A stretch of 64,000 nt of DNA, taken from a virus. Position 1 is the first letter of the stretch. Every line of letters begins with the position of its first letter. Under the pieces are notes generated by a model. It was not told the DNA's origin. It saw nothing but the letters and a program-made list of their open reading frames with translations, and ran no database searches. A program made the translations under genes and the position numbers. This document shows, piece by piece, positions 8,789 to 63,143 of the stretch. The stretch is from positions 32,001 through 96,000 of IMG/VR virus record IMGVR_UViG_3300028394_000001, one strand, 5' to 3'.

Positions 8789-8824
8789 GGGGGGCTTGAC
8801 AAAGCCCCCTCTTTATGTTATACT
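8789..8824 (+). promoter_or_regulatory. Terminator-like hairpin containing a sigma70 promoter
   Basis: GGGGGCTT-GACA-AAGCCCCC hairpin; TTGACA-17-TATACT. Confidence 0.7.
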
Positions 8825-10334: not shown

Positions 10335-10859
10335 GTGCCTATGTATTTGAAGATTGTTGGTTGTCCTGATGAGAACTTCAAACCTTATCTAAAAAAGGCC
10401 GCCCACTTCTTCGCTAAAAATTTGTTCTCACCGCAATTATCTCCACACATTTACGTTCTGGTTAAGTTTGATAAAACATTAGATAGTCATGGAAGTTGTG
10501 AAGTTGCTGATTATGAAACAAGTAGAAAACCTAGAGAGTTTCTAATCAACATGAAACCAGGAATTGGTGCACCAGCTTTGTTTAGAACACTGGCTCATGA
10601 AATGGTCCATGTGAAACAATTTGCATATCAACATACGAATGCTTCTTTGAGTGTTTGGCATAAGAAAGAAATTGATTCGGATAATTTAGATTACTGGTTT
10701 CATCCGTGGGAGATAGAAGCATATGGTTTGGAAACAAGCCTTGTAACAAAATTTTCAGTTGAAGAAAAGTTGTGGGAAATCTTTGAAGAATTTAAAAATC
10801 CAGAAGAACCTGCAAAATATGAAGAAATAAAGTGGAAAACTTTAGAAACCACTAAATAA
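10335..10859 (+). CDS. Zincin-like metallopeptidase
   Basis: LAHEMVHVKQ and PWEIEA. Confidence 0.75.
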   Translation: MPMYLKIVGCPDENFKPYLKKAAHFFAKNLFSPQLSPHIYVLVKFDKTLDSHGSCEVADYETSRKPREFLINMKPGIGAPALFRTLAHEMVHVKQFAYQHTNASLSVWHKKEIDSDNLDYWFHPWEIEAYGLETSLVTKFSVEEKLWEIFEEFKNPEEPAKYEEIKWKTLETTK

Positions 10860-10902
10860 GTTGTATATATAGAGTTATAGTTAAATCTTTTTTGGAGTTA
10901 TA

Positions 10903-11010
10903 GTGTCTCAGTTTCTCAAGTCCTTATCGTCAGCCTGTGAGTATCGCACACCGTTTATTGGTAGCGATAATCAACCATGGGCGCATCTAGGGGGTTGTGG
11001 AGGACGATAA
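10903..11010 (+). CDS. Putative attenuator leader peptide (35 aa)
   Basis: GGAG RBS at 10894, GTG start, TAA-TAG double stop; 31 distinct codons among 35. Confidence 0.6.
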   Translation: MSQFLKSLSSACEYRTPFIGSDNQPWAHLGGCGGR

Positions 11011-11039
11011 TAGAGTAAGAAAACTAAATCAGAATTCAC

Positions 11040-11069
11040 AAACCTCACCCTAAAAAAGTGGGGTTTTTT
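11040..11069 (+). terminator. Intrinsic terminator with a competing antiterminator
   Basis: AAACCTCAC/GTGGGGTTT hairpin plus T tract; 10990-11001 can pair with 11035-11046. Confidence 0.75.
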
Positions 11070-11174
11070 GTTGTTCCAATACAACAAATGTGTTGACAGA
11101 AGCATCGACTTCTGTTACACTAGGTTCTTCGGTTGAGAAATCAATCATGTTCTTTAAAAAGTAAGTGTAATTTG
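11069..11174 (+). promoter_or_regulatory. tRNA operon promoter 1 with palindrome and boxA-like leader
   Basis: TGTTGT-N6-ACAACA; TTGACA-17-TACACT; GAAA-loop hairpin; TGTTCTTTAAAAA. Confidence 0.75.
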
Positions 11175-11175
11175 T

Positions 11176-11249
11176 TGGGGCATTGTGTAGTGATAGCACA
11201 GGAGACTTTGAATCTCTTAGTCTAGGTTTGATTCCTAGTGCCCCTGCCA
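11176..11249 (+). tRNA. tRNA-Gln(TTG)
   Basis: Loop CTTTGAA, 3' GCCA. Confidence 0.9.
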
Positions 11250-11390
11250 TATTGAAACATATTTTAAAATCCAGTAACTTTCTAGCACGTCCGGCCGGCA
11301 ATCTAGAAAGCAACCCGTAGAGGGGTAAGAGTCGAAAGAGTGATGGATAATCGGCGGTGAGAATCCGCAGAAAGTGTGTTTCAATATGGT
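11246..11390 (+). ncRNA. Long-stem RNA, family 2 copy 1
   Basis: CCATATTGAAACATATTTT pairs with AAAGTGTGTTTCAATATGG. Confidence 0.6.
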
Positions 11391-11438
11391 AATGTTATCT
11401 GCAGGTAGCATCCATACTGGGGAGTAATTGCCCTCAGG

Positions 11439-11513
11439 AACTCGTAGTCTTCTAGTGGTAAGAAGCCCCATTAAAGGGGTGAACACAGGTTCGATTCCTG
11501 TCTACAATGAGTT
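11439..11513 (+). ncRNA. Degenerate tRNA-like element without CCA
   Basis: D arm CTTC/GAAG, T arm ACAGG-TTCGATT-CCTGT, short anticodon arm. Confidence 0.5.
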
Positions 11514-11618
11514 TGCTATATAAGAACACATTGCATGCCTGACCGAAAAAGTCGTGGTAAACTACAAGAGAAAGAGGTTCGAATCCTCGGGACTGGTAGT
11601 GTGTTCCTATATGGTAAA
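11512..11618 (+). ncRNA. Long-stem RNA, family 2 copy 2
   Basis: CTATATAAGAACACATT pairs with AGTGTGTTCCTATATGG; internal GAGG-TTCGAAT-CCTC. Confidence 0.6.
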
Positions 11619-11623
11619 ATTTA

Positions 11624-11715
11624 GGAAGATGATGCAGCTGGGATGGTCCGGCGACTAGCCTTGAAAACTAGGTTCTCAGAAATGGGATGGGGTTCGACTC
11701 CTCCGTCTTCCGCCA
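11624..11715 (+). tRNA. tRNA-Ser(TGA)
   Basis: Loop CTTGAAA, long variable arm, GCCA. Confidence 0.88.
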
Positions 11716-11721
11716 AAAATT

Positions 11722-11808
11722 GGAGAGTGGGCTGGATGGTAAGGCACCGGATTGCTAATCCGACGCTCCGAAAGGGGCGAGTGGGTTCGACTCCCACACT
11801 CTCCGCCA
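11722..11808 (+). tRNA. tRNA-Ser(GCT)
   Basis: Loop TTGCTAA, long variable arm, GCCA. Confidence 0.92.
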
Positions 11809-11813
11809 AATTT

Positions 11814-11891
11814 GTACAGATGGCCGAGCGGTCCAAGGCAACAGTCTGCAAAACTGTAAAACCGTGGGTTCAAATCCCACTCTGTACTCCA
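11814..11891 (+). tRNA. tRNA-Cys(GCA)
   Basis: Loop CTGCAAA, U73, CCA. Confidence 0.92.
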
Positions 11892-11894
11892 GTA

Positions 11895-12022
11895 TGTTGT
11901 TTTTTTACAACAATGTACCGAAAAGTGTTGACAAAGTGTGTGGTTGTGTTATACTCCATGCATGAGTTGAGAAAGTCATCGAACTTCTCAACAAGGCTCA
12001 TTAAAAAAATAAGTGTAATTTG
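11895..12022 (+). promoter_or_regulatory. tRNA operon promoter 2 with palindrome and boxA-like leader
   Basis: TGTTGT-N6-ACAACA; TTGACA-16-TATACT; GGCTCATTAAAAA; TAAGTGTAATTTG shared with leader 1. Confidence 0.72.
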
Positions 12023-12023
12023 T

Positions 12024-12098
12024 GCTCCCGTCGTCTACTGGCTAGGACGCTGCCCTTTCAAGGCGGAGAAGACGGATCGAAACCGTTCGGGAGTACCA
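12024..12098 (+). tRNA. tRNA-Glu(TTC)
   Basis: Loop CTTTCAA, ACCA. Confidence 0.9.
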
Positions 12099-12178
12099 TA
12101 GATAAACGCATTACCTCATAAGCCTGTCGGTGAAAACTGCTGTTACGCTTTTTGAGACTGGTGTGTTTTTCTATGGTA
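12094..12178 (+). ncRNA. Long-stem RNA, family 2 copy 3
   Basis: TACCATAGATAAACGCATT pairs with GGTGTGTTTTTCTATGGTA. Confidence 0.55.
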
Positions 12179-12187
12179 GTGTTATTT

Positions 12188-12262
12188 GGGGGTATAACTT
12201 AACGGCTAAAGTAGTAGGCTTTTAACCTATTAATCAGAGTTCGATTCTCTGTGCCCCTACCA
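12188..12262 (+). tRNA. tRNA-Lys(TTT)
   Basis: Loop CTTTTAA, ACCA. Confidence 0.92.
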
Positions 12263-12270
12263 AGAATTTT

Positions 12271-12347
12271 GCCCTGGTGATGGAATTGGTATACATACTG
12301 GTCTTAGAAACCAGGTTCTGGGAGTTCAAGTCTCCCCTAGGGCACCA
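12271..12347 (+). tRNA. tRNA-Leu(TAG), short variable region
   Basis: Loop CTTAGAA, ACCA. Confidence 0.88.
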
Positions 12348-12353
12348 AATTTA

Positions 12354-12428
12354 GGCTCGTTCATATAATGGCTATTATCGCGGATTGTCTATCCGTAGAT
12401 GGGAGTTCGATTCTCCCACGAGTCGCCA
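12354..12428 (+). tRNA. tRNA-Asp(GTC)
   Basis: Loop TTGTCTA, GCCA. Confidence 0.9.
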
Positions 12429-12437
12429 AGTTAGTAT

Positions 12438-12511
12438 TCTTTCGTAGCTCAATGGTAGAGCAATCGGCTGATAACCGATAGACAAAAGTTCAATTCTTTT
12501 CGAAAGAACCA
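12438..12511 (+). tRNA. tRNA-Ile(GAT)
   Basis: Loop CTGATAA, ACCA. Confidence 0.92.
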
Positions 12512-12517
12512 AGATAT

Positions 12518-12603
12518 GGAGTAGACGCCTGAGAGGAAGGGCACCCGGCTGTAACCCGGAGGTCAGTAATGCTGTAGAGGTTCGAACCCTCTCTGCTCCA
12601 CCA
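12518..12603 (+). tRNA. tRNA-Tyr(GTA)
   Basis: Loop CTGTAAC, long variable arm, ACCA. Confidence 0.9.
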
Positions 12604-12604
12604 A

Positions 12605-12796
12605 TCTCGTTACTACTTTCGTTAAAGTAGCGTTTGATTAGCGATAGAGATCCGGTGGCAGAAGACCGTTAGTGAGGAGAACCCTCTGAATCTGATAGGC
12701 AGTATTCCTCTGCACACAGACGTTAGAATAAAAGGAATGGACAGAGTAACTGCTCAATCAAGGGCTGGCGTAGAACCCAGTAGCTTGTACTTATTT
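12605..12796 (+). ncRNA. Unassigned structured RNA of about 190 nt between tRNAs
   Basis: Multiple stems (CTACTTT/AAAGTAG, TTCCT/AGGAA, GCAGT/ACTGC); no ORF. Confidence 0.5.
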
Positions 12797-12871
12797 GGGC
12801 TGTTAGTGCTAATGGTAACACATCTGGTTTGCAACCAGAAATTAAGAGTTCGATTCTCTTACGGTCCACCA
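12797..12871 (+). tRNA. tRNA-Ala(TGC)
   Basis: G3:U70, loop TTTGCAA. Confidence 0.93.
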
Positions 12872-12878
12872 AGTTTTT

Positions 12879-12952
12879 GCCCTATTAGTATAATGGTATT
12901 ACACCTGTTTTGTAATCAGGTTACGGCAGTTCGATTCTGTCATGGGGCACCA
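12879..12952 (+). tRNA. tRNA-Thr(TGT)
   Basis: Loop TTTGTAA, ACCA. Confidence 0.9.
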
Positions 12953-12960
12953 AGTTTTAT

Positions 12961-13026
12961 GCAGACGTTTTTTAACAATAGAGGGGTCCACCCTTTATCT
13001 ACGCGGAAACCGTAGTGTCTGCTCCA
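12961..13026 (+). ncRNA. D-armless tRNA-like RNA ending in TCCA
   Basis: Acceptor GCAGACG/TGTCTGC, T-like arm CTACG-CGGAAAC-CGTAG, central ATAGAGGG/CCCTTTAT stem. Confidence 0.65.
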
Positions 13027-13031
13027 GTTTT

Positions 13032-13105
13032 CTCGGTATGGTGAAATGGTATCACTCATGGTTTGGGACCATGGAGCGAAGGTTCGATTCCTTCTACCGA
13101 GACCA
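13032..13105 (+). tRNA. tRNA-Pro(TGG)
   Basis: Loop TTTGGGA, ACCA. Confidence 0.92.
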
Positions 13106-13110
13106 ATTTT

Positions 13111-13180
13111 TAGGATGCGTTCAGCAAATTTTATACATTGAACTTTTAATTCAAACCGTAAAAAAGCATCCTGTTGTTTT
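13111..13180 (+). ncRNA. CAGCAA hairpin RNA, copy A
   Basis: TAGGATGC/GCATCCTG stem, GTTCAGCAA, internal TTGAA-CTTTTAA-TTCAA. Confidence 0.7.
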
Positions 13181-13182
13181 AT

Positions 13183-13257
13183 TCCCTTGTAGCTCAGCGG
13201 TAGAGTAGGTGACTGTTAATCATTTGGTCCGTGGTTCGATCCCACGCAGGGGAGCCA
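13183..13257 (+). tRNA. tRNA-Asn(GTT)
   Basis: Loop CTGTTAA, GCCA. Confidence 0.93.
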
Positions 13258-13261
13258 GTTT

Positions 13262-13330
13262 TAGAGTAGGTTCAGCAAACATAAAGCTAACTTTTGGATG
13301 TCTAGCGACAAAAACTACTCTGTTATTTTT
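13262..13330 (+). ncRNA. CAGCAA hairpin RNA, copy B
   Basis: TAGAGTAG/CTACTCTG stem, GTTCAGCAA. Confidence 0.7.
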
Positions 13331-13331
13331 A

Positions 13332-13406
13332 GGTCATATGACGTAGACGGATGCGTAGCGGTCTCATAAGCCGACGAGAGTGGCTCGGTACCACTTATGA
13401 CCACCA
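13332..13406 (+). tRNA. tRNA-Met(CAT), elongator type with atypical T loop
   Basis: Loop CTCATAA, ACCA; T loop CTCGGTA. Confidence 0.8.
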
Positions 13407-13410
13407 ATTT

Positions 13411-13485
13411 CGGTCCTTAGTAAAATGGATATTACACTAGGCTACGAACTTAGGAGTGGGAGTTCGATTCTCTCAGGACCGGCCA
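13411..13485 (+). tRNA. tRNA-Arg(ACG)
   Basis: Loop CTACGAA, GCCA. Confidence 0.92.
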
Positions 13486-13503
13486 ATTTTAGGAGCATTA
13501 AAT

Positions 13504-13701
13504 ATGAGTGATGGTGGTAAAGGTTCTTCACCAAGACCGTTCAGTGTCGCTGATGAAGAATATGCAAAAAGATGGGACATGATTTTTAGTCGTGACCTGG
13601 AAGAAGTGAAAGAAGTAAATATCTCGGTAGCTCAATTGGCAGAGCAGCGGCCTCCAAAGCCGAAGGTTGAGGGTTCAACTCCTTCTCGGGGTGCCAATTA
13701 A
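13504..13701 (+). CDS. Small protein MSDGGKGSSPRP...; frame continues through tRNA-Trp
   Basis: AGGAG RBS at 13491, ATG 13504. Confidence 0.6.
   Translation: MSDGGKGSSPRPFSVADEEYAKRWDMIFSRDLEEVKEVNISVAQLAEQRPPKPKVEGSTPSRGAN
13621..13696 (+). tRNA. tRNA-Trp(CCA)
   Basis: Loop CTCCAAA, GCCA. Confidence 0.9.
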
Positions 13702-13716
13702 AAAAGGTGGTGTAAT

Positions 13717-14205
13717 ATGAAAGATTTTGATATTGAAAAAGTGAAGCAATTCATTGTGAATCAAGGACCAGATACTAAAATCTATCTTGGTGCCGATTCA
13801 GAAAGATTGCGTGTTGATGGCGTATGGTATGCAGATTACGCATTAGCTGTTGTTGTTCATATTGATGGCCGCCACGGTTGTAAAATCTTTGGTTTCGTAA
13901 ACCGTGAATTAGATTACGACCACAAGAAAAGCAAACCTGCTATGCGACTGATGACAGAAGTTTATAAAGTTTCAGAATTGTTCCAAGCAATGTCTGATGT
14001 ACTTGAAGACCGCCACGTTGAAGTTCATTTGGACTTGAACAAATCAGTTGAACACGGAAGTTCTTGTGTTGTGCAGCAAGCGATTGGTTATATCAAAGGT
14101 ACATGTAATGTGACACCAATGGTTAAACCTGATGCACCTGCAGCAAGTTTCTGTGCAGATAGGTTGAAACGTATTTTGGCTGAACAAGAATTGGCCGAAG
14201 CGTAA
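13717..14205 (+). CDS. RNase H-like protein, YkuK/DUF458 family
   Basis: IYLGADS, RLMTEV, EVHLDLN, KPDAPAASFCAD. Confidence 0.8.
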   Translation: MKDFDIEKVKQFIVNQGPDTKIYLGADSERLRVDGVWYADYALAVVVHIDGRHGCKIFGFVNRELDYDHKKSKPAMRLMTEVYKVSELFQAMSDVLEDRHVEVHLDLNKSVEHGSSCVVQQAIGYIKGTCNVTPMVKPDAPAASFCADRLKRILAEQELAEA

Positions 14206-14211
14206 GAAAAT

Positions 14212-14286
14212 GCGGGTATGGTGCTAGTGGTAACACAAGACCTTGCCAAGGTTTAGTTGAGAGTTCGATTCTCTCTACCCGCTCCA
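14212..14286 (+). tRNA. tRNA-Gly(GCC)
   Basis: GCG acceptor, U73, loop TTGCCAA. Confidence 0.93.
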
Positions 14287-14308
14287 AATTCTCCAAAGTT
14301 TACTTTGG

Positions 14309-14385
14309 GGTGACTATAGTGTAACGGTTTAGCACACCACTCTGTGAAAGTGGTAGAATGGGCTCGTCTCCCATTAGTCACCCCA
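14309..14385 (+). tRNA. tRNA-His(GTG)
   Basis: G-1:C73, loop CTGTGAA. Confidence 0.9.
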
Positions 14386-14395
14386 AAGTAAATTT

Positions 14396-14470
14396 GCCTT
14401 GTTAACTCAGCGGTAGAGTAACTCTTTTACACGGAGAAGGTCGGCGGTTCAATCCCGTCACAAGGTACCA
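14396..14470 (+). tRNA. tRNA-Val(TAC)
   Basis: Loop TTTACAC, ACCA. Confidence 0.9.
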
Positions 14471-14519
14471 AATATCGCCTTTGTTGACGGCGTACAATGA
14501 GATAAATTGTCAACAACTT

Positions 14520-14593
14520 GCTCTTATAGTATAATGGCATTACACGTCCTTGGTAAGGATGAAACACAAGTTCAATTCTTGTTAAGAGCACCA
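14520..14593 (+). tRNA. tRNA-Thr(GGT)
   Basis: Loop TTGGTAA, ACCA. Confidence 0.92.
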
Positions 14594-14599
14594 AATTTT

Positions 14600-14675
14600 G
14601 CAACTTTAGCTGATGTGGTCATAGCGGTGGTCTGAAGAACCATTGAAAGAGGTTCGATTCCTCTAGGTTGCACCA
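14600..14675 (+). tRNA. tRNA-Phe(GAA)
   Basis: Loop CTGAAGA, ACCA. Confidence 0.9.
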
Positions 14676-14679
14676 ACAT

Positions 14680-14771
14680 GCCAGCGAGACTGGGTAGTCA
14701 GAGAGGCCTTATACACCTTTTAGCGCCAGATTAGCGTTCTTGAGTGAGTTCGAATCTCACCGCTGGTACCA
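14680..14771 (+). tRNA. Atypical tRNA with TAT anticodon (nominally Ile) and long variable arm
   Basis: GCCAGCG/CGCTGGT-ACCA, loop CTTATAC, canonical T arm. Confidence 0.75.
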
Positions 14772-14778
14772 AATTTAT

Positions 14779-14856
14779 GCCCCCGTGGACAAATTGGCAA
14801 AGTCACTTCTCTCAAAAGGAAGAATTCTCTCGGTTCAACTCCGAGCGGGGGTACCA
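14779..14856 (+). tRNA. tRNA-Leu(CAA), short variable region
   Basis: Loop CTCAAAA, ACCA. Confidence 0.86.
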
Positions 14857-14857
14857 T

Positions 14858-14932
14858 CTCTCTATAGTTCAATGGATAGAACACGTTCCTCCTAAGAATG
14901 AGATGCAGGTTCGATTCCTGCTGGAGAGACCA
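14858..14932 (+). tRNA. tRNA-Arg(CCT)
   Basis: Loop CTCCTAA, ACCA. Confidence 0.92.
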
Positions 14933-51966: not shown

Positions 51967-52019
51967 TGTTGTATTAAAACAACAAAAAACTTGACAATTA
52001 CTTGAAAGTTCTGTATAAT
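51967..52019 (+). promoter_or_regulatory. Palindrome plus sigma70 promoter
   Basis: TGTTGT-N6-ACAACA; TTGACA-17-TATAAT. Confidence 0.8.
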
Positions 52020-63091: not shown

Positions 63092-63143
63092 TGTTGTTTT
63101 AATACAACACTGGCTTGACATATCCGTTGGATTCTGTTATAAT
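63092..63143 (+). promoter_or_regulatory. Palindrome plus sigma70 promoter
   Basis: TGTTGT-N6-ACAACA; TTGACA-17-TATAAT. Confidence 0.8.

Follow-up and report, generated by a model that had tools for sequence, protein, structure and literature searches.

Organization of the leader locus

The window analysed here, a stretch of 64,000 nt, derives from a complete 170.5-kb virus record. The genome carries T4-like replication genes, including a clamp loader and a family B polymerase that is ∼50% identical to those of cyanophages; judged by this gene content, the uncultured phage is T4-like. It contains 29 tRNAs and one tRNA-like element. The genes, promoters, motifs and leader segments mapped between 10335 and 14932 all lie on the plus strand. 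The context gene at 10335–10859 encodes a 174-aa protein with an HExxH motif (phrog_10499, of unknown function). No terminator was found between this gene and the leader, and an operon with a promoter at 8796–8824 ends in the leader.

The leader ORF (10903–11010) has 35 codons. It starts with GTG at 10903, 5 nt downstream of a Shine-Dalgarno GGAG (10894–10897), and is closed by TAA (11008–11010) followed by TAG, exactly as described in an earlier note made from the sequence alone. Recounting also confirmed the unusual composition reported there: 31 distinct codons out of 35, 19 amino acids with the initiator included (18 after it), five Ser codons and both Gln codons. The codons CTC, TCG, CGC, CCG, GCG and GGG, which the note had called uncommon, indeed occur at 1.4–5.9 per 1000 in the genes of the window. 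Codons 2–29 contain 18 amino-acid types, with neither Val nor Met among them, and form the sensing window ahead of segment 2. The phage's own tRNAs decode 24 of its 28 codons, and 20 of the phage's 27 anticodons are sampled.

The leader contains four elements of an attenuator. Segment 1 (10911–10926, codons 3–8) is a protector that would pair with segment 2 in the absence of a ribosome. Segment 2 (10990–11001, codons 30–33) is the 5′ arm of the antiterminator and segment 3 (11035–11046) its 3′ arm. Segment 3 overlaps the 5′ arm of an intrinsic terminator (3:4, 11040–11069), which is built from a −9.4 kcal/mol stem (11040–11048/11058–11066) and a T run up to 11069. The pairing of segments 2 and 3 at 11 of 12 positions, and its overlap with the terminator, had been proposed in the note and are both present. 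An additional hairpin inside the leader (10933–10982) is a candidate pause site for RNA polymerase; the equivalent region folds better than shuffled sequences across the family (mean z −2.1). An Rfam search over the leader, which covered T-box and other Rfam leaders, gave no match at gathering score (best E-value 0.89). Among 106 terminator-like hairpins in the whole genome, three have both an antiterminator and a small ORF ending 21–36 nt upstream, and the leader site is one of them. The same geometric filter was passed by two other pairs of small ORF and terminator (G000:C1:76343-76472 and G000:C1:96402-96555).

The main tRNA array (11176–14932) encodes 24 tRNAs for all 20 amino acids and one tRNA-like element, and has an internal promoter (11928–11955). 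Two regions, 11093–11175 and 11928–12023, share an rrn-like layout consisting of a promoter, a short hairpin, a boxA-like motif, an identical TAAGTGTAATTTG and a first tRNA. The tRNA-like element (11441–11509) has an irregular anticodon loop and scores 36 bits against the Rfam tRNA model; near this position, relatives carry tRNA-Ile(TAT) or Ser. Structured spacers separate the tRNAs at 11249–11388, 11521–11614, 12097–12176, 12604–12790, 12960–13027, 13110–13180 and 13262–13325. Several of them, which are exchanged among relatives, have long terminal stems that close them (−12 to −45 kcal/mol), and Rfam returned no match to the spacers at gathering score. They are possibly small RNAs that are cut out along with the tRNAs. 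A 476-aa DUF2828/DUF7788 protein (phrog_850, RNA-binding protein) is encoded inside the tRNA region at 15219–16649. We take it to be Ro60/TROVE-like, and for this reason it is a possible partner of the structured spacers.

A family of leader-attenuators upstream of phage tRNA arrays

Relatives were collected in two ways. A leader-derived pattern retrieved ∼46 distinct viral loci, nearly all directly 5′ of a tRNA-Gln-led array. The boxA motif and the upstream HExxH gene served as anchors independent of the leader and were chosen to avoid selecting on the leader itself. The main set comprises 87 leader-attenuator loci, many of them found by the leader-independent anchors, and more were found later. 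Start sites were picked by Shine-Dalgarno or leaderless signals rather than by composition, with six corrected by hand, and calls of leader absence rest on the pipeline of this analysis. Comparisons were made on subsets of 36 representatives, 33 disjoint close pairs and 16 peptides of <50% identity; the p-values given below are optimistic because the loci are related. L003 and L215 have nearly identical anchor proteins and different leader families, which suggests that the leader cassette is exchanged as a module.

Neither BLASTN nor tblastn with the leader found a relative in cultured phages, and a profile search with the leader peptide recovered two members of the family plus a repeat protein matched by chance. 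When the leader pattern was run against bacterial genomes, none of the at least 80 matches listed had a tRNA within 1.5 kb downstream, and these matches look like chance. The regions 5′ of the tRNA arrays were compared by geometry in three cultured phages, two of which have the same leader-attenuator arrangement, unannotated in GenBank. In Xanthomonas phage X1 (OQ427096.1) it lies at L480:8505-8679 with 36 tRNAs downstream. The X1 leader has 39 codons, starts 6 nt past ATAAATA and stops 30 nt before the terminator; its 18 amino-acid types in 32 codons give P = 0.07 when taken alone. In Ralstonia phage RsoM2USA (MG752970.1) the leader-attenuator (L481:3985-4151) has 37 codons, and its terminator is 15 nt 5′ of the first tRNA. 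The 30 residues of its sensing window use only ten amino acids, all within the set of the next 15-tRNA block (its edge defined by a 4.6-kb gap), as against 64% in shuffles. The RsoM2USA genome paper does not mention attenuation (PMC8504454). No such leader-attenuator was found in Stenotrophomonas phage DLP6.

Evidence for translation of the leader

The note had suggested looking for a conserved short ORF ahead of the tRNA arrays of related phages. Such an ORF is kept in 87 leaders, with its frame, its start signal (Shine-Dalgarno or leaderless) and its stop spacing. The start codon is ATG in 49, GTG in 23 and TTG in 15. Leaderless starts are found in 33 of the 87 leaders, where ATG lies 4–8 nt past a −10 or TATAAATA box. 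The stop codon is positioned 22–35 nt 5′ of the terminator in all 36 representatives. In the 33 close pairs, single-base codon changes are synonymous in 68 cases and nonsynonymous in 51, compared with an expectation of 25% synonymous. The changes are distributed over the three codon positions as 68/62/124, the third position being about twice as variable as either the first or the second. By these patterns of substitution and spacing, the leader ORF is judged to be translated.

Alternative helices form a switch

The covariation of the antiterminator proposed in the note was examined across the family, with helix pairs counted on a C-run anchor because the MAFFT alignment set segment 3 out of register. 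The 2:3 helix covaries. Cognate 2:3 duplexes have an energy of −15.4 kcal/mol versus −11.3 kcal/mol for non-cognate ones, a value that none of 20000 permutations reached, and the inner helix columns 7–10 contain G-C/T-A swaps among relatives. The 1:2 duplex has a weak cognate preference (−10.6 versus −9.5 kcal/mol, p = 0.002), and cognate preference was not significant for two control pairings. On this comparative evidence, the alternative 2:3 and 3:4 helices constitute a real switch. The rival helix is not the one that had been proposed: the TTATCGTC/GACGATAA pairing is confined to the nearest clade and crosses 1:2, whereas the pairing of segment 1 with segment 2 holds across the family.

The leader region folds stably (−47 kcal/mol). 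When a ribosome footprint was moved along the leader of this window during folding, predicted termination was 0.95 without a ribosome (P(2:3) of 0.03), dropped to near 0 for A-site positions in codons 5–27 and returned to 0.95 at codon 28, where it stayed as far as the stop. The fold thus switches at about codon 28; segment 2 lies in the last codons and is covered once the ribosome gets to the end of the ORF. The family behaves similarly in the ribosome walk, with P(2:3) of ∼0.95 until ∼4 codons before segment 2 and near 0 thereafter. According to the model, the sensing window here would narrow to about codons 2–16 should segment 1 pair again around a stalled ribosome. Without a ribosome, the median P(2:3) over the relatives is 0.93; the protector in most of them loses to the antiterminator at equilibrium, which makes the outcome of the untranslated state uncertain.

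Leader composition tracks the tRNA set

The codon diversity of this leader was compared with simulations, as the note had proposed. Thirty distinct codons in 34 are rare when compared with the codon usage of the window or with real 34-codon gene windows (P = 0.001), but only moderately rare when compared with uniform or ORF-composition codons (P = 0.03–0.04). The diversity of this single leader is only moderately strong evidence, and the claim is therefore carried by comparative data. The sensing windows of the family contain a mean of 17.4 amino-acid types. The corresponding values are 14.4 for stop-free dinucleotide shuffles, 14.0 for the two remaining reading frames and 13.5 for phage genes. 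The mean of its own shuffles is exceeded in 34 of the 36 representatives, and the same result was obtained with the 16 peptides of <50% identity. With a mean z of 2.2, amino acids and decoding boxes are more enriched than single codons (mean z 1.4). The leaders of L078, L085, L246, L308 and L370 have little sequence in common with the leader studied here, yet contain 17–20 amino-acid types. Judging from these comparisons, composition rather than peptide sequence is what the family conserves.

The amino-acid alphabet of the leader grows with that of the array (rho = 0.68, n = 20). Ten small arrays have shrunken leaders, whose sensing windows nevertheless contain 67 of the 72 array amino acids; none of 50000 permutations of leaders against arrays reached this coverage. 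The leader of L329, a locus with tRNAs for Leu, Pro, Thr and Met, uses four different codons for Leu and none for Trp, and its sibling L375, in which the anchor gene is 94% identical, has gained both a tRNA-Trp and one extra TGG codon. The first tRNA of L329 is a tRNA-Leu whose anticodon is AAG, which is seldom seen in bacteria and phages; L375 has TAG there. In the L222/L311/L306 group, the tRNAs are largely tracked by Gln, Ser and Pro codons, with the exception of L343, which has a tRNA-Gln and no Gln codon. The small-array groups fall on separate branches of the anchor-gene tree but are few and related.

A leader was found in 24 of 25 arrays with at least 10 tRNAs, compared with 5 of 24 smaller arrays. 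No leader was found at the large arrays L360 (12 tRNAs) and, in addition to those counts, L392 (21 tRNAs), and L237 and L362 have broad leaders despite their small arrays. L226, L319, L323, L336, L337 and L390, which have few tRNAs, keep the same terminator type and have no leader or antiterminator; these are probable cases of sensor loss. The order of leader residues was also compared with the order of tRNA genes. The two are colinear here (longest common subsequence of 12 versus 9.0, p = 0.016), and 8 of 10 relatives gave p values of 0.28–0.98, so colinearity was rejected. Together, the family comparisons support the view that selection acts on the broad composition of the leader and that this composition follows the tRNA set.

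Promoters on both sides of the attenuator

The note had named CTAAATA as a late-promoter-like element. This sequence is present at 10852–10858, but it overlaps the upstream stop codon, is found at only 10 of the 87 loci and occurs upstream of none of the long genes of this genome, and its assignment as a promoter was dropped. The conserved motif ahead of the leader is instead of the TATATA/TATAAATA type (76 of 87 loci), with a canonical TATAAATA in the same flank of L024. In the window, the late-promoter-like TATATATA at 10864–10871 is the putative counterpart. A sigma-70 promoter lies 5′ of the leader at 52 of the 87 loci; this window has there the TATATA/TATAAATA-type motif and a bare −10-like hexamer, and no sigma-70 promoter.

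The array does lie downstream of the leader but, contrary to what had been stated, does not adjoin it. Between them are a second promoter (11093–11121), a sigma-70 type with TTGACA-17-TACACT and an extended −10, which is located 3′ of the terminator and bypasses the attenuator, and a boxA-like motif (11148–11160) 5′ of the first tRNA at 11176. The boxA-like motif is present at 67 of the 87 loci and a promoter downstream of the terminator at 69. At 14 of the 87 loci, the first tRNA is within 40 nt of the terminator with no promoter between, and no gate other than the attenuator is visible. Control of the tRNA array by the leader is thus upheld insofar as a translated leader-attenuator precedes it with a broad composition that tracks the tRNA set, but not as the sole control: given the downstream promoter and boxA here, the attenuator is a second input.

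A palindrome, TGTTGT-N6-ACAACA (11069–11086), precedes the second promoter. The sequence has eight plus-strand matches, compared with 1.35 in shuffles, and lies 5–15 nt 5′ of the −35 box in at least five strong sigma-70 promoters. Further sites are found at 11895–11912, 51967–51984 and 63092–63109 in the window and at genome positions 98648 and 99792, and the palindrome is present 3′ of the terminator in 67 of the 87 relatives. As a candidate operator, it may bind a regulator of early promoters.

Proposed mechanism and alternative explanations

We consider it likely that the locus is a ribosome-mediated transcription attenuator, which would monitor the supply of usable tRNA and, when ribosomes stall, admit upstream transcription into the tRNA array. 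As predicted by folding, a ribosome held within about codons 5–27 would let segment 2 pair with segment 3 so that the polymerase reads through, and a ribosome that reaches about codon 28 would cover segment 2, allowing the terminator to form and transcription to end near 11069. In this way the phage would probably raise its tRNA output whenever a shortage of any one tRNA stalls ribosomes. Stalling would be caused by tRNA loss, whether to anticodon nucleases of the host or to tRNA decay linked to infection, rather than mainly by a shortage of amino acids, since additional tRNA would cure only the first of these. At this locus, the downstream sigma-70 promoter may provide basal or early expression; the late-type promoter and the upstream operon would contribute further expression on demand, through the attenuator. 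The interpretation given in the note is, as a whole, partly supported. With somewhat less assurance, but still as the better bet, we propose that these loci belong to a class of phage feedback that is widespread but has escaped annotation. A compact leader in such a system would sample each tRNA of the array about once and evolve along with it, and the phage would detect tRNA-destroying host defences by the stalls they cause and supply replacement tRNAs when needed.

The attenuator could be real and yet serve as a non-specific gauge of translation speed or of transcription-translation coupling, like whiB7 or toiL, its broad composition producing a response to any slowdown, whether from antibiotics, rRNA or mRNA toxins, ribosome shortage or amino-acid starvation. 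The same fold is indeed expected whichever codon of the sensing window stalls; whiB7 answers antibiotics, amino-acid starvation and knockdown of tRNAs and synthetases alike, toiL answers five antibiotic classes, and amino acids are present in leaders without a matching tRNA in the array in 71 of 118 cases. A purely general sensor, however, has no need of a leader alphabet that narrows with the array and follows its tRNA gains and losses, and we regard this explanation as rather unlikely.

Less probable still is that the peptide itself acts, as an arrest peptide or small protein, the hairpin being mainly the terminator of the upstream operon. A ∼14-residue core is highly conserved in one clade, amino acids are under purifying selection and the array has its own promoter here, all of which would fit; against this stand unrelated peptides of the same position and composition (the five leaders named above), the covarying 2:3 helix, and the 14 loci where terminator and first tRNA lie side by side and no promoter separates them. 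The least probable explanation, which we hold to be very improbable, is a non-coding structured RNA that contains an ORF by chance. Its appeal is in the stable fold and in a codon diversity that, for this single case, has a P of about 0.04 against uniform codons, but it conflicts with the conserved frame and start signals, the third-position bias and the frame-specific amino-acid diversity of the 36 representatives, and no Rfam match was found.

Codon compensation and counter-defence are the competing answers to the long-standing question of why phages have tRNA arrays. An attenuator that opens on any tRNA shortage is predicted by the counter-defence or depletion view and is needless for fixed codon compensation. 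The leaders would also reveal which tRNAs each phage monitors. As two cultured phages carry leader-attenuators, the question is directly testable, and a leader-attenuator could be put to use as a compact reporter of toxins and defence systems that target tRNAs.

Comparison with known systems

Phage tRNAs counter tRNA-cleaving defences (PMC10264068), as illustrated by PARIS and the T5 tRNA-Lys (PMC11464382), and by analogy this is the likely purpose of the array; neither paper mentions attenuation. A literature search, from which subscription papers were mostly outside coverage, found no published account of attenuation of tRNA genes.

A precedent for broad sensing is the whiB7/wblC uORF of mycobacteria and Streptomyces, an attenuator of variable sequence in which composition decides what is sensed and stalling causes antitermination (PMC10274678). 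The M. smegmatis whiB7 uORF contains every amino acid except Cys and is enriched in Ala, and when its only Trp codon was removed, Trp starvation elicited a weaker response, so that one codon suffices (PMC10274678). The whiB7 system is bacterial and controls a transcription factor, whereas the leader of the phage is compact and has an alphabet that varies with the tRNA set under its control. No sequence relation between the two was found, and the genes downstream are tRNAs in a T4-like phage rather than a whiB7-family gene in Actinobacteria. By analogy, the phage leader works like the whiB7 uORF but is not a member of that class. The E. coli toiL uORF is a multipurpose stalling sensor on a toxin-antitoxin operon (PMC12121999); it uses translational repression and Rho-dependent termination, in contrast to the intrinsic terminator switch of the phage leader.

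In its architecture, the phage leader resembles the trp/his class, with a short translated leader, segments that pair as 2:3 and 3:4 and putatively as 1:2, a terminator overlapping the antiterminator, and predicted read-through on stalling. Control codons match the products of the downstream genes, as seen in the coverage of array amino acids in the small arrays. Attenuators of amino-acid operons include trpL, hisL and pheL, the multivalent thrL and ilvGMEDA leaders, and pheM of pheST. The note had set the phage leader apart from trp and his leaders, which repeat one amino acid, and this contrast is borne out: codon diversity is above chance, and tandem control codons are absent here, so that it is not a trp/his-type leader in the narrow sense. 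Instead of a run of one or few codons, the phage leader has about one codon per amino acid over 16–32 codons. Its output is tRNA genes, leaderless and near-cognate starts are common, and a bypass promoter often lies 3′ of the terminator.
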